Shown here piece by piece: positions 7,755 through 60,632 of a DNA stretch of 64,000 nt (position 1 is its first letter; each line of letters starts with the position of its first letter). The notes under the pieces were generated by a model, which saw only the letters and a program-made list of their open reading frames with translations, had not been told where the DNA came from and ran no database searches. The stretch lies in assembly GCF_003334405.1 (NCBI RefSeq), contig NZ_QOWM01000009.1. One strand, written 5' to 3'. The DNA comes from Escherichia coli (GTDB lineage: Bacteria > Pseudomonadota > Gammaproteobacteria > Enterobacterales > Enterobacteriaceae). Both the position numbers and the translations under genes were made by a program.

Positions 7755-8972
7755 ATGCCCGAACCCGTAGCCGAACCCGCGCTAAACGGATTGCGCCTGA
7801 ATTTGCGCATTGTCTCTATAGTCATGTTTAACTTCGCCAGCTACCTCACCATCGGGTTGCCGCTCGCTGTATTACCGGGCTATGTCCATGATGTGATGGG
7901 CTTTAGCGCCTTCTGGGCAGGATTGGTTATCAGCCTGCAATATTTCGCCACCTTGCTGAGCCGCCCTCATGCCGGACGTTACGCCGATTCGCTGGGACCC
8001 AAAAAGATTGTCGTCTTCGGTTTATGCGGCTGCTTTTTGAGCGGTCTGGGGTATCTGACGGCAGGATTAACCGCCAGTCTGCCTGTCATCAGCCTGTTAT
8101 TACTTTGCCTGGGGCGCGTCATCCTTGGGATTGGGCAAAGTTTTGCCGGAACGGGATCGACCCTATGGGGCGTTGGCGTGGTTGGCTCGCTGCATATCGG
8201 GCGGGTGATTTCGTGGAACGGCATTGTCACTTACGGGGCGATGGCGATGGGTGCGCCGTTAGGCGTCGTGTTTTATCACTGGGGCGGCTTGCAGGCGTTA
8301 GCGTTAATCATTATGGGCGTGGCGCTGGTGGCCATTTTGTTGGCGATCCCGCGTCCGACGGTAAAAGCCAGTAAAGGCAAACCGCTGCCGTTTCGCGCGG
8401 TGCTTGGGCGCGTCTGGCTGTACGGTATGGCGCTGGCACTGGCTTCCGCCGGATTTGGCGTCATCGCCACCTTTATCACGCTGTTTTATGACGCTAAAGG
8501 TTGGGACGGTGCGGCTTTCGCGCTGACGCTGTTTAGCTGTGCGTTTGTCGGTACGCGTTTGTTATTCCCTAACGGCATTAACCGTATCGGTGGCTTAAAC
8601 GTAGCGATGATTTGCTTTAGCGTTGAGATAATCGGCCTGCTACTGGTTGGCGTGGCGACTATGCCGTGGATGGCGAAAATCGGCGTCTTACTGGCGGGGG
8701 CCGGGTTTTCGCTGGTGTTCCCGGCATTGGGTGTAGTGGCGGTAAAAGCGGTTCCGCAGCAAAATCAGGGGGCGGCGCTGGCAACTTACACCGTATTTAT
8801 GGATTTATCGCTTGGCGTGACTGGACCACTGGCTGGGCTGGTGATGAGCTGGGCGGGCGTACCGGTGATTTATCTGGCGGCGGCGGGACTGGTCGCAATC
8901 GCGTTATTACTGACGTGGCGATTAAAAAAACGGCCTCCGGAACACGTCCCTGAGGCCGCCTCATCATCTTAA
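7755..8972 (+). CDS. yhhS: MFS transporter
   Basis: 12-TM-like hydrophobic ORF; start taken at MPEPVAEP (405 aa); divergent from yhhT. Confidence 0.8.
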   Translation: MPEPVAEPALNGLRLNLRIVSIVMFNFASYLTIGLPLAVLPGYVHDVMGFSAFWAGLVISLQYFATLLSRPHAGRYADSLGPKKIVVFGLCGCFLSGLGYLTAGLTASLPVISLLLLCLGRVILGIGQSFAGTGSTLWGVGVVGSLHIGRVISWNGIVTYGAMAMGAPLGVVFYHWGGLQALALIIMGVALVAILLAIPRPTVKASKGKPLPFRAVLGRVWLYGMALALASAGFGVIATFITLFYDAKGWDGAAFALTLFSCAFVGTRLLFPNGINRIGGLNVAMICFSVEIIGLLLVGVATMPWMAKIGVLLAGAGFSLVFPALGVVAVKAVPQQNQGAALATYTVFMDLSLGVTGPLAGLVMSWAGVPVIYLAAAGLVAIALLLTWRLKKRPPEHVPEAASSS

Positions 8973-8975
8973 AAC

Positions 8976-9533
8976 TTACTGAATAACCAGCGTATTAATG
9001 ATGTTTTCTGCGGTGGTCTGCGCTTTTTGCTGATCGTCAGCGGGCAGCGTAATTTGCATGGTCAGCAGTTGATTACCCACGTTACCCAGAATAACGGAAG
9101 AGTACGCCGTCTGGCCTTTCGCGGAGATAATACTGTCTAACTGCTGCATTTTGTGACCTTTCAGCTCAATGGCTTTATTGGTTACCACTTGCAGCTGCGG
9201 ATCGCGGCTACGTTGCTGATCTTCCAGACGCTTCGCCAGCACCGCCAGATCTTCTTTCGGATCATCGCCCATGATGACGATGACTGCTTTCTGCCCGGTG
9301 GCGTCGGACCAGACATGCATGTTATTGGCCTGCGTTCCCAGCTTACCGCTCTGGTCGGTCATATCCGCTGGCAGCGAGAAACTTAACTTGCCATCAAGCA
9401 GGTTGACGGGATTCCCGGTAGCGTTACTTTCCGCGACCGAACCCTGCGCCGTAGCGTTAGTGTCTTTATCATCACAGGCCGCAAGCCCCATAACCAGCAG
9501 GCCAATTCCGACATATTTAACCAGATTGCGCAT
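8976..9533 (-). CDS. dcrB: Periplasmic lipoprotein DcrB
   Basis: Start at [22 protein letters not shown] (lipobox LAAC); 185 aa. Confidence 0.85.
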
Positions 9534-13877: not shown

Positions 13878-14237
13878 ATGAGCAAACCACCTCTTTTCTT
13901 TATTGTTATCATTGGCTTAATTGTCGTCGCCGCATCGTTTCGTTTTATGCAACAGCGACGGGAAAAAGCTGATAATGATATGGCTCCGCTCCAGCAAAAG
14001 CTGGTGGTGGTGAGCAACAAGCGGGAAAAACCGATTAACGATCGCCGTTCGCGCCAGCAGGAAGTGACTCCGGCAGGCACCAGTATACGCTATGAGGCAA
14101 GCTTCAAACCGCAAAGCGGAGGAATGGAGCAGACGTTTCGCCTCGACGCCCAGCAGTACCACGCCCTGACAGTGGGCGATAAAGGTACGCTGAGCTATAA
14201 AGGAACGCGCTTTGTCAGCTTTGTAGGCGAACAATAA
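13878..14237 (+). CDS. yhhM: Small membrane-anchored protein (DUF2500-like)
   Basis: 119 aa; N-terminal TM helix; synteny. Confidence 0.75.
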   Translation: MSKPPLFFIVIIGLIVVAASFRFMQQRREKADNDMAPLQQKLVVVSNKREKPINDRRSRQQEVTPAGTSIRYEASFKPQSGGMEQTFRLDAQQYHALTVGDKGTLSYKGTRFVSFVGEQ

Positions 14238-14239
14238 GG

Positions 14240-14509
14240 TTATTTTTTAACTTTAAATTTCTTCTGCCAGGCCAGCAGTTCAAACACGCCGAAAAGGAAA
14301 ATCCGTACCTTTTCGGCGGTGGTCATCTGCGGGCCATCTTTCGGTAAAGTGGATTTCAATAGCGCCAGCTGCATACCATGCATCAGCACGGTAAAAATCA
14401 GCGCCACGTTAACGAAGATATTCAGCGGGCGTGGGAAGGGATGCACCAGGTTGAGGATTAAAAATCCCCAAACGCAGAGCATTAACAAACGACCAATATT
14501 AATCAGCAT
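14240..14509 (-). CDS. yhhL: Small inner membrane protein
   Basis: Start chosen at MLINIGRLLML (89 aa) so that it follows rsmD with an 11-bp overlap; longest ORF would overlap rsmD extensively. Confidence 0.7.
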   Translation of the reverse strand: MLINIGRLLMLCVWGFLILNLVHPFPRPLNIFVNVALIFTVLMHGMQLALLKSTLPKDGPQMTTAEKVRIFLFGVFELLAWQKKFKVKK

Positions 14510-37694: not shown

Positions 37695-37785
37695 GCGATC
37701 AGGAAGACCCTCGCGGAGAACCTGAAAGCACGACATTGCTCACATTGCTTCCAGTATTACTTAGCCAGCCGGGTGCTGGCTTTTT
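37695..37785 (+). ncRNA. ryhB: RyhB small RNA (Fur-repressed, Hfq-dependent iron-sparing sRNA)
   Basis: GCGATCAGGAAGACCCTCGCGGAGAACCTGAAAGCACGACATTGCTCACATTGCTTCCAGTATTACTTAGCCAGCCGGGTGCTGGCTTTT matches RyhB as I recall it, with terminal GC stem (gccagccgggtgctggc) and U-tract; between yhhY and yhhX as in K-12. Confidence 0.88.
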
Positions 37786-37905
37786 TTTTGATCTTTCGTT
37801 CTCAATTTATCCACGGGAGTGCTTGTGTTCGTTATGCGCACTCCAGTAGGAACCACGTCCGCTTTGCGCTAAGGTGTAAATAACCACCTTAAAAAGGACG
37901 AAATC

Positions 37906-58105: not shown

Positions 58106-58864
58106 ATGAAACAAACACAACGTCACAACGGTATTATCGAACTGGTTAAACAGCAGGGTTATGTCAGTACCGAAGAGCTGGTAGAGCATTTCTCCGTCAG
58201 CCCGCAGACTATTCGCCGCGACCTCAATGAGCTGGCGGAGCAAAACCTGATCCTGCGCCATCATGGCGGTGCGGCGCTGCCTTCCAGTTCGGTTAACACG
58301 CCGTGGCACGATCGCAAGGCCACCCAGACCGAAGAAAAAGAGCGCATCGCCCGCAAAGTGGCGGAGCAAATCCCCAATGGCTCGACGCTGTTTATCGATA
58401 TCGGCACCACGCCGGAAGCGGTAGCGCACGCACTGCTCAATCACAGCAATTTGCGCATTGTCACCAACAATCTCAACGTTGCTAACACGTTGATGGTAAA
58501 AGAAGATTTTCGCATCATTCTCGCCGGTGGCGAATTACGCAGCCGCGATGGCGGGATCATTGGCGAAGCGACGCTCGATTTTATCTCCCAGTTCCGCCTT
58601 GATTTCGGCATTCTGGGGATAAGCGGCATCGATAGCGACGGCTCGCTGCTGGAGTTCGATTACCACGAAGTTCGCACCAAACGCGCCATTATTGAGAACT
58701 CGCGCCACGTTATGCTGGTTGTCGATCACTCGAAATTTGGCCGTAACGCGATGGTCAATATGGGCAGCATCAGCATGGTAGATGCCGTCTACACCGACGC
58801 CCCGCCGCCAGTAAGCGTGATGCAGGTGCTGACGGACCACCATATTCAACTGGAGCTGTGCTGA
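58106..58864 (+). CDS. glpR: Glycerol-3-phosphate regulon repressor (DeoR family)
   Basis: 252 aa; N-terminal HTH STEELVEHFSVSPQTIRRDL. Confidence 0.93.
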   Translation: MKQTQRHNGIIELVKQQGYVSTEELVEHFSVSPQTIRRDLNELAEQNLILRHHGGAALPSSSVNTPWHDRKATQTEEKERIARKVAEQIPNGSTLFIDIGTTPEAVAHALLNHSNLRIVTNNLNVANTLMVKEDFRIILAGGELRSRDGGIIGEATLDFISQFRLDFGILGISGIDSDGSLLEFDYHEVRTKRAIIENSRHVMLVVDHSKFGRNAMVNMGSISMVDAVYTDAPPPVSVMQVLTDHHIQLELC

Positions 58865-60444
58865 TCCTGCACGGCTTCCCACGTCAGACCAAAACGCGCC
58901 AGGTATTTGCGTAGCCGATCCGCGTCATTGACGCTGGCTTTGCCCTGGCGCGAAACGTCAAAAAGCTGGCGTCCGGCTGCGGAAAGCGACTTTGCCTGGC
59001 GGCAGATAGCGATAACGTGTTCCAGTTGCATACGGTCGAAGAGATCGATGTTTTCTGCCTCTGCGCCCAGCAACGCCGTAAGCGCGGAGGGGCGGCTCTC
59101 CTGCCAGTTATAGCGCAGACGGTTTATCTCATCTTCAACCACGTCCAGAGTGATGCGTCCGCTAGTGGCAAAGGTGGCCATCCGCGTGACGCTGGCAGAA
59201 AGTTCGCGAAAGTTACCGCGCCATGTTGCCTGGGGAGAGGTCGCAAAAGCCAACCAGGCGCGCCGCGCTTCGGTGTTAAAACGCACGCTGTCGCCAGTGA
59301 GTGAGGCGTGGCGCTCCACTTCATAATCCAGGTTCGGTTCAATATCTTCCTGGCGCTGGCGTAGACCCGGCAGGGTGAAGGTCCAGAGATTGATCCGCGC
59401 GTACAGATCTTCGCGAAATTTGCCTTCGGCAACCAGCTGGCGCAAATCGCGCACCGTTCCGGCGATAAGCTGAAAATCACTGCTCACCTGGCGATCGCTG
59501 CCAAACGGGTAAAAGGTTTTCTCTTCAATGGCTTTCAGCAGCATTGCCTGTTCGTCTGCGCCCAGTTCGCCAATCTCATCAAGAAACAACATTCCGCCGT
59601 TGGCGCTGCGTAATAAACCTTCACGAGATTCCCGCGCCCCGGTAAACGCGCCTTTTACATGACCAAACAGCGTCGACATGGCGGTATCGCCGCGCAGGGT
59701 GGCGCAGTTCACTTCCACAAACGCGCCGCTAAACTGATGCCGCGCCTGTTTTAACTCGAAGATGCGTCGCGCCAGAAATGACTTGCCCGCGCCGGTTGGA
59801 CCGTTAAGCAGAATCGGCGCGCGGGATTTGATCGCCACTTTTTCGATCTGCTCAATCATGCGGTTGAAGTGGGGGTTACGCGTGGCAATGCCGGACTTAA
59901 GAAAATCAAGCGTTTGCTGGCGTTCCTCGGCAAAGCGGCTGGCGATGGCGTTATAACGGCTTAAATCGAGATCGATAATCGTTACTTCACCTGGGCCGCG
60001 CGGCTGTTCTTTTTTGCGCGGAGGTGAAGATTGTATCAGCCGGGCGGGCAGGTAACGCGCTTCTGCCAGCAGAAACCAGCAAATCTGCGCGACGTGGGTA
60101 CCGGTGGTGATGTGAATTAAATAGTCTTCTTTTTCTGGCTGAAACTCGTAACCACGGGCGAAATCATGCAGGCAGGCGTAGACCTCTTCGAAATCCCACG
60201 GGTTATGCAGTTCAATCTCAACGCTCACCACTTCTGTTTCTGGCGAAACGCTGGCGATATCGCGTTTAAGCGTTTCAAATAGCGAGCGCGAGCGGGCGTC
60301 GTGCAACAATTCCAGTCGATCGATGACCAACGATTCTTGCTGGCATAAACAGAGTGTCGGACGCCATTTTGACCAGCGCTGACTGCCGCGCCCGGCATAA
60401 TCCAGTACGGTACCGACAAAGCCAAAAGCCACTGTTTTACGCAT
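58846..60444 (-). CDS. rtcR: Sigma54-dependent transcriptional activator of rtcBA
   Basis: 532 aa; AAA+ Walker A GPTGAGKS and GAFTGA sigma54-interaction motif; 19-bp convergent overlap with glpR 3' end. Confidence 0.93.
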
Positions 60445-60578
60445 CTTAGATATCCTTATAAAAGACGATATTTCATTATCGGTAAATTGGCTTTGCGGGA
60501 AATCTCCGGTTACGGACGTAAAGATATAATCTTTTTTAAAACAATGAATTAAAAAATTAAGCTGCTTATTTAATTTTC

Positions 60579-60594
60579 TGGCACGACGGTTGCA
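60579..60594 (+). promoter_or_regulatory. Sigma54 (-24/-12) promoter of rtcBA
   Basis: TGGCAC gacgg TTGCA read directly ~40 bp upstream of rtcB ATG. Confidence 0.85.
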
Positions 60595-60632
60595 ATTATC
60601 AGGACAGCAAACAACGAAAAGAGAAAAACAAA

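Follow-up and report, generated by a model that had tools for sequence, protein, structure and literature searches.

The 19-bp convergent overlap of glpR and rtcR in Escherichia coli: an annotated coding overlap probably made by stop-codon mutation at a spacer-less junction

Results

Gene content and geometry of the overlap

The window analysed here, a stretch of 64,000 nucleotides from E. coli, contains two convergent regulatory genes, glpR and rtcR, that share coding sequence at their 3′ ends (Table 1). The first encodes GlpR, the DeoR-family repressor of the glycerol-3-phosphate regulon, which matched the NCBIfam profile PRK10906 over residues 1-252 with 552.8 bits (cut-off 331). The second encodes RtcR, the sigma-54 activator of the rtcBA RNA-repair operon, which matched NF038308 with 852.4 bits (cut-off 650) over residues 1-527 of 532 and carries the Pfam domains RtcR/CARF (2-185), Sigma54_activat (187-354) and AAA_lid (362-443). 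Both are real, conserved protein-coding genes. On the glpR strand, the shared segment comprises the stop codon, the last five codons and one base of I246; on the rtcR strand, it comprises the stop codon, the last five codons and one base of D527. The phase of the overlap places the third codon positions of the two genes opposite each other.

This overlap had been reported in a preliminary description of the window, and both the open reading frames and the RefSeq CDSs confirmed it. Over the whole 64 kb, 10 SNPs and not a single indel separate the window from E. coli strain FJ_Ec_21, so the RefSeq coordinates of that strain apply directly to it; the strain has the identical two CDSs and the identical 19-bp overlap. 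The overlap is also 19 bp in the RefSeq annotation of K-12 MG1655 (rtcR 3558268..3559866, glpR 3559848..3560605). We considered an annotation artefact and rejected it, because the stop codons fix the 3′ ends and both proteins align to their families until the last few residues. In MG1655, glpR is a pseudogene frameshifted by a 1-nt deletion, and the glpR-rtcR block measures 2338 nt there and 2339 nt in the window.

Table 1. Coordinates of the features discussed, numbered from the first nucleotide of the window
Feature	Position	Strand	Remarks
glpR CDS	58106..58864	+	252 aa; ends HIQLELC-TGA; intact in the window strain (ORF list, sequence)
rtcR CDS	58846..60444	-	532 aa; ends QDQHSSS-TGA (ORF list, sequence)
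Shared segment of glpR and rtcR	58846..58864	both	19 bp (ORF list, sequence)
RtcR tail D527-S532 (DQHSSS)	58849..58866	-	Non-conserved; sequence set by the antisense of conserved glpR codons
10-bp hairpin in glpR-sense RNA	58852..58879	+	glpR stop codon in the loop; no U-tract
Predicted 3′ untranslated read-through of glpEGR	58865..59198	+	Antisense to the last third of rtcR, until the Rho region
p19-captured 22-nt RNase III-type duplex in glpR	58397..58420	both	PMC7373196, Table S3; exact sequence match
ugpQ/yhhA overlap	32105..32118		14 bp; ugpQ 31375..32118 (+), yhhA 32105..32545 (-)

A similar convergent overlap at ugpQ/yhhA, also mentioned in the preliminary description, proved to be present as well, in a codon phase that differs from that of glpR/rtcR. 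Both overlaps are already known, as both are annotated in RefSeq, including K-12 MG1655. According to the RefSeq table, the window has ten convergent junctions, of which these two overlap and six have gaps of 37-268 bp. The convergent pairs yhhS/dcrB (8972..8976) and yhhM/yhhL (14237..14240) are separated by gaps of 3 and 2 bp, respectively, and at 4 of the 10 junctions there is no room for an intergenic terminator. For E. coli, the count given by Lillo and Krakauer is 58 convergent overlaps; they identified stop-codon mutation as the usual origin of such overlaps and observed an excess of 4-nt convergent overlaps made of CTAA, TTAA, CTAG or TTAG (Lillo & Krakauer 2007, PMC2174442).

Two further observations were made elsewhere in the window. 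A Term-seq 3′ end at MG1655 3586994 (+), recorded in LB with a Rho score <1 (Adams et al.), lies 51 nt inside the yhhA ORF, at approximately position 32495 on the minus strand of the window (estimated without sequence mapping); it points to premature termination or processing close to where yhhA starts and has nothing to do with the ugpQ/yhhA overlap. The sRNA RyhB lies at 37724..37788 (+), between yhhY and yhhX (Rfam RF00057, 83.1 bits); it was the only match in the window at the Rfam gathering threshold and is missing from the feature table shown for the matching RefSeq strain.

The junction in related genomes

A scan for RtcR in one genome per species, together with the contigs of selected homologues, yielded 11 further enteric rtcR-glpR junctions. 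The spacer was absent at all 12 enteric junctions (the window included), and the genes overlapped by at least 4 bp, with a variable length. The 19-bp state was found in the window, in four other Escherichia species, in E. coli with deleted rtcR and in K. oxytoca. A 4-bp state, consisting of a stop/stop tetramer, was found in loci L019, L026 and L029, which represent Superficieibacter electus (CTAA), an rsr-containing locus (L026, TTAA) and a metagenomic locus (L029, CTAA). The overlap measured 35 bp in Intestinirhabdus alba, where a 7-nt deletion moves rtcR into another frame, and 38 bp in a variant of Salmonella enterica with a 7-nt deletion and a frameshift, as in Intestinirhabdus alba.

The alignment of the two shorter states revealed how closely they are related. 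Read along rtcR, the 4-bp state is ...AAT TAA CAC AGC TCC AG... and the 19-bp state is ...GAT CAG CAC AGC TCC AGT TGA, and the T/C difference between them falls on position 1 of the rtcR stop codon and, on the opposite strand, on position 2 of the glpR stop codon. One substitution thus links the two states, since the exchange of TAA and CAA in rtcR is at the same time the exchange of TAA and TGA in glpR. The phase of the overlap is the same in both states, because 19 = 4 + 15, and it is the third:third phase that every convergent overlap of 4 bp has. Sequences in the 19-bp state varied at 58849, 58852 and 58855 only, where third codon positions face each other and the changes are synonymous in both genes; the GlpR C-terminus (QLELC, followed by the stop codon) was identical in 12/12 loci compared. 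When the rtcR frame was extended over antisense glpR, stop codons occurred at 8 of 252 codons (3.2% per codon), and a read-on of five codons after the loss of the rtcR stop is therefore unremarkable. The glpR/rtcR overlap does not exceed chance expectation.

The gene order on the other side of rtcR also varied. A Ro60/TROVE (rsr-like) gene lies between rtcR and rtcB in L026 (758..2311) and L029 (760..2313), both in the 4-bp state, and rtcR is followed directly by rtcB in the E. coli window (60445..60632) and in the Salmonella variant (L027). Because the interval from rtcR to rtcB occurs with and without the rsr-like gene, the rtc island beside glpR has at least two architectures.

The C-terminal tail of RtcR

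In approximately 100 RtcR homologues, a family block ending in ...FGLxW (17 protein letters not shown) is conserved, the conserved part ends about 4 residues later, and the tails past it vary in length and sequence. A 527-aa form of the Salmonella type (P0028, 2038 member sequences) ends in ...LQN followed by the stop codon and lacks QHSSS, and frameshifted tails (ISTAPAEYGDR and ISTIPAVYGGRR) were also seen. Some E. coli entries of 636 aa (P0001 and P0007) continue 104 residues further into antisense glpR, where a frameshift near the 3′ end of rtcR joins a stop-free antisense frame of 115 codons (58535..58882, minus strand); the antisense frame used has 1 stop in 253 codons. These long entries could be real variation or sequencing error, and one of their clusters has 14 member sequences.

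If the six-residue extension DQHSSS were itself under selection, the overlap would be the cost of keeping it, and the retention of an xQHSSS tail in Escherichia, K. oxytoca, an Enterobacter sp. and a Phytobacter sp. is in line with this proposal. However, QHSSS is the antisense reading of the invariant LELC-stop codons of GlpR, and glpR alone suffices to explain why it is conserved. The QHSSS residues also lie outside the NCBIfam profile match, the 527-aa form with its 2038 member sequences does without them, and there are frameshifted tails and 636-aa read-through variants besides. We therefore give a selected tail hardly any credence. As judged from the sequences, the overlapping RtcR residues appear to be a passive, dispensable readout of constrained glpR codons.

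Loss of rtcR in E. coli

Among 5426 complete E. coli genomes, 577 (~11%) showed <80% coverage of a query made of the glpG 3′ part, glpR and rtcR. In the two low-coverage genomes inspected, most of rtcR was deleted, and glpR and the 19-bp junction were intact.

Erosion of the rtc locus is frequent in E. coli, and individual cases differ in extent. In one E. coli genome (L023, 4001..4111), 33 rtcR codons remain; in L032 (3847..4245), what is left of rtcR is a remnant of 399 nt, which a deletion has joined to a truncated rtcA; both genomes have kept glpR and the junction untouched. In E. coli BE311 (L031, 339..1547), an IS4-like element, ISVsa5, is inserted between glpG and glpR and truncates the 5′ end of the annotated glpR, and glpR and rtcR are otherwise identical. 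We considered this insertion as a change of the junction and rejected it, because its site is the 5′ end of glpR.

Termination and RNA structure at the junction

A consensus scan detected no intrinsic terminator at or near 58846..58864, and the surrounding 2.7-kb region contained 4 sites versus 4.5 expected from shuffled sequence. An Rfam search of the window gave no match to a structured RNA at the glpR/rtcR junction. A rut-like excess of C over G past either stop codon was only weak (C/G 1.4 and 1.2, first 100 nt after the glpR stop) and uninformative.

Published data locate the end of the glpR-sense transcripts further downstream. Adams et al. (2021, PMC7815308, Supplementary file 2) give MG1655 3559514(-), antisense to rtcR, as a Rho termination region, with a Rho score of 8.9 (p = 2.7e-27) and upstream/downstream reads of 154/29 without bicyclomycin (BCM) and 153/256 with BCM. 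By sequence mapping, this region corresponds to position 59198 (+) of the window, 334 nt beyond the glpR stop codon. In the Term-seq tables for three growth conditions (PMC7815308, files 1 and 3), neither glpR nor rtcR has a discrete 3′ end assigned to it, and SMRT-Cappable-seq has no entry for either gene.

The preliminary description had stated that the mRNAs of the two regulators are complementary at their 3′ ends. This was borne out and in fact understated the extent: full-length GlpR or RtcR mRNAs must span the 19 bp, for which reason termination ahead of the overlap is not a case that applies to functional mRNAs. In addition, because there is no intrinsic terminator and the Rho stop lies ~334 nt inside rtcR, a long duplex can potentially form, and complementarity of the two RNAs can extend beyond the 19 nucleotides to hundreds.

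We also evaluated whether the junction might be an overlapping bidirectional terminator of the kind defined by SEnd-seq, that is, a hairpin element where polymerases coming from both sides pause, run into each other and terminate. The 10-bp hairpin centred on the glpR stop codon, with -16.4 kcal/mol in E. coli and E. albertii and the capacity to form on either strand, would suit such an element. However, it is followed by CCACGUCAGACC, which is not a U-tract, and its fold was no better than those of shuffled sequences (z = -0.96 in a 121-nt context; also +0.16). The stem decays within the genus, from -16.4 kcal/mol to between -10 and -11.5 in the other Escherichia, and is absent from the loci in the 4-bp state. 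Furthermore, glpR-sense termination is Rho-dependent and distal, whereas the SEnd-seq class is described as Rho-independent (bioRxiv 10.1101/2022.10.23.513370), and the missing Term-seq 3′ ends in the three conditions also speak against a terminator at this position. A bidirectional terminator is thus a most improbable account of the junction.

Double-stranded RNA and RNase III

Double-stranded RNA captured with p19 over glpR amounted to 94.6 RPM in exponential and 49.0 RPM in stationary phase, which is mid-range (Huang et al. 2020, PMC7373196); according to the same study, dsRNA comes from most E. coli genes. The 22-nt duplex listed for glpR was recorded at 1.09 and 1.47 RPM, near the inclusion floor of 1 RPM (PMC7373196, Table S3), and lies ~425 nt away from the overlap. 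In the rnc-14 mutant, GlpR protein was 0.95-fold (adjusted p = 0.16-0.32) and not significantly changed in three experiments (PMC7373196). Gordon 2017 gives two candidate RNase III sites within rtcR, at 60273 and 59476 of the window; we set them aside, because their ratios are based on 0.01 pseudo-counts in a poorly expressed gene and because they are far from the overlap. The literature that we searched contains no paper linking glpR and rtcR functionally or treating their overlap, and glp goes unmentioned in the paper on the mechanism of RtcR.

These observations bear on the suggestion, made in the preliminary description, that the overlap gives potential for transcriptional interference or RNase III processing. 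One could extend this suggestion and regard the spacer-less convergent pair as a functional cis-antisense module, in which mutual read-through lowers the partner via polymerase collision and/or RNase III, so that glycerol-regulon control would be coupled to RNA-repair control. Several findings are compatible with such a module: the lack of an intrinsic terminator, with Rho-dependent read-through of ~334 nt antisense into rtcR; the dsRNA over glpR (94.6 and 49.0 RPM), with one RNase III-type duplex; the absence of a spacer in 12/12 enteric loci; and the documentation of collision-driven termination at convergent E. coli genes (bioRxiv 10.1101/2022.10.23.513370). However, neither the overlap length (4, 19, 35 or 38 bp) nor the RtcR tail is conserved, the dsRNA signal is shared with most E. 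coli genes, and the sole listed glpR duplex is remote from the overlap and close to the inclusion floor. GlpR was not significantly altered in rnc-14, and no functional link between the genes appears in the literature searched. Moreover, the MG1655 reference tolerates a glpR frameshift, and the 577 low-coverage genomes include the two inspected ones in which most of rtcR is deleted. We therefore consider a cis-antisense module unlikely. The suggested interference and processing found no support in these data, and a regulatory role of the overlap itself is not favoured either, as its length varies between genera and the junction persists, along with glpR, in strains that have lost most of rtcR. 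Any convergent pair without a spacer has this kind of "potential".

The published data on Rho, dsRNA and the proteome were obtained in K-12 strains, and glpR is frameshifted in the MG1655 reference and intact in the window; these data on the glpR-rtcR locus may therefore not be exactly transferable, and a glpR+ strain, such as that of the window, could differ both in termination and in its amount of GlpR.

Discussion

The explanation that we favour, and hold with good confidence, is that the glpR/rtcR overlap is a neutral, already annotated tail-to-tail overlap made by stop-codon mutation at a junction that has no spacer. In Enterobacteriaceae, the rtc locus adjoins glpR without intergenic DNA, and the minimal state of the junction is the 4-bp stop/stop arrangement (TTAA or CTAA). 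In the state of Escherichia and K. oxytoca, C stands in place of T at position 1 of the rtcR stop, which is position 2 of the glpR stop; such a change would keep the glpR stop (TAA to TGA) and turn the rtcR stop into a glutamine codon (TAA to CAA/CAG). The overlap would then measure 19 bp because rtcR, deprived of its stop, reads five codons through antisense glpR until a chance stop, and QHSSS would be nothing but constrained glpR codons translated passively, and dispensable to RtcR. Which of the two states, 4 or 19 bp, came first is a matter of inference.

At the RNA level, the proposed stop-codon origin leaves room for ordinary antisense transcription. As the genes have no terminator between them, transcripts of glpEGR would enter rtcR in the antisense direction for several hundred nucleotides until Rho stops them, and rtcR transcripts must likewise run into glpR, presumably with a comparably long extension. 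Some sense/antisense pairing and RNase III trimming probably occur at glpR/rtcR, as for most E. coli genes, probably with little effect on either regulator; interference would be negligible, because glpR and rtcR are weakly expressed regulators.

Comparison with known systems places glpR/rtcR in the class of convergent overlaps made by stop-codon mutation (PMC2174442; PairWise Neighbours database, PMC2716372). As in that class, two bona fide genes share their 3′ ends; relatives have the minimal 4-nt stop/stop tetramer (here TTAA and CTAA); and the longer overlap has the same phase, with one stop lost and an extension that is short and non-conserved. All four features tested for this class are present at glpR/rtcR, and nothing material differs, so that the pair is one of ~58 in E. 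coli. With the bidirectional terminators defined by SEnd-seq (bioRxiv 10.1101/2022.10.23.513370), glpR/rtcR shares the convergent arrangement, the lack of a canonical intrinsic terminator and, at the E. coli junction, a hairpin that can be drawn. It differs from them in its Rho-dependent, distal termination and in a hairpin that is neither significant nor conserved; moreover, the collision model applies best to highly expressed pairs, which these two weakly expressed regulators are not.

Excludon-type cis-antisense regulation with RNase III processing has been described in Listeria and S. aureus. The 3′-overlapping mRNAs of this type resemble glpR/rtcR in that the neighbouring transcripts, here by prediction, overlap by hundreds of nucleotides and dsRNA is detectable (E. 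coli catalogue, PMC7373196). Unlike an excludon, however, glpR/rtcR has no known reciprocal effect, with GlpR unchanged in the rnc mutant; the functions of the two genes are neither related nor opposed, and many E. coli strains can dispense with the arrangement.

The lack of a spacer or terminator at any of the 12 enteric junctions could hint at constraint, although shared ancestry explains it equally well. A stronger version would hold that the junction has been kept free of spacer and terminator across Enterobacteriaceae because mutual read-through is used, with glpEGR transcription damping rtcR via antisense read-through, collision or RNase III; we judge the two propositions together to be very unlikely. 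If damping were true, the basal level of the RNA-repair activator would depend on carbon status. Transcription of glpEGR from its first promoter is CRP-dependent. To read a function into the overlap is speculative, and such evidence as there is tends the other way.

The significance of the glpR/rtcR overlap is therefore small, as it is of a known and common kind. It is, however, a textbook case of how a shared TTAA tetranucleotide and a longer overlap are related by one substitution that keeps one stop codon and destroys the other. The meaningful antisense unit at this locus would be the Rho-terminated 3′ untranslated region of hundreds of nucleotides, rather than the coding overlap. For genome scans, this suggests flagging a short convergent coding overlap in E. 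coli only if its length or sequence is conserved to a degree that the coding constraint of the partner gene does not account for.
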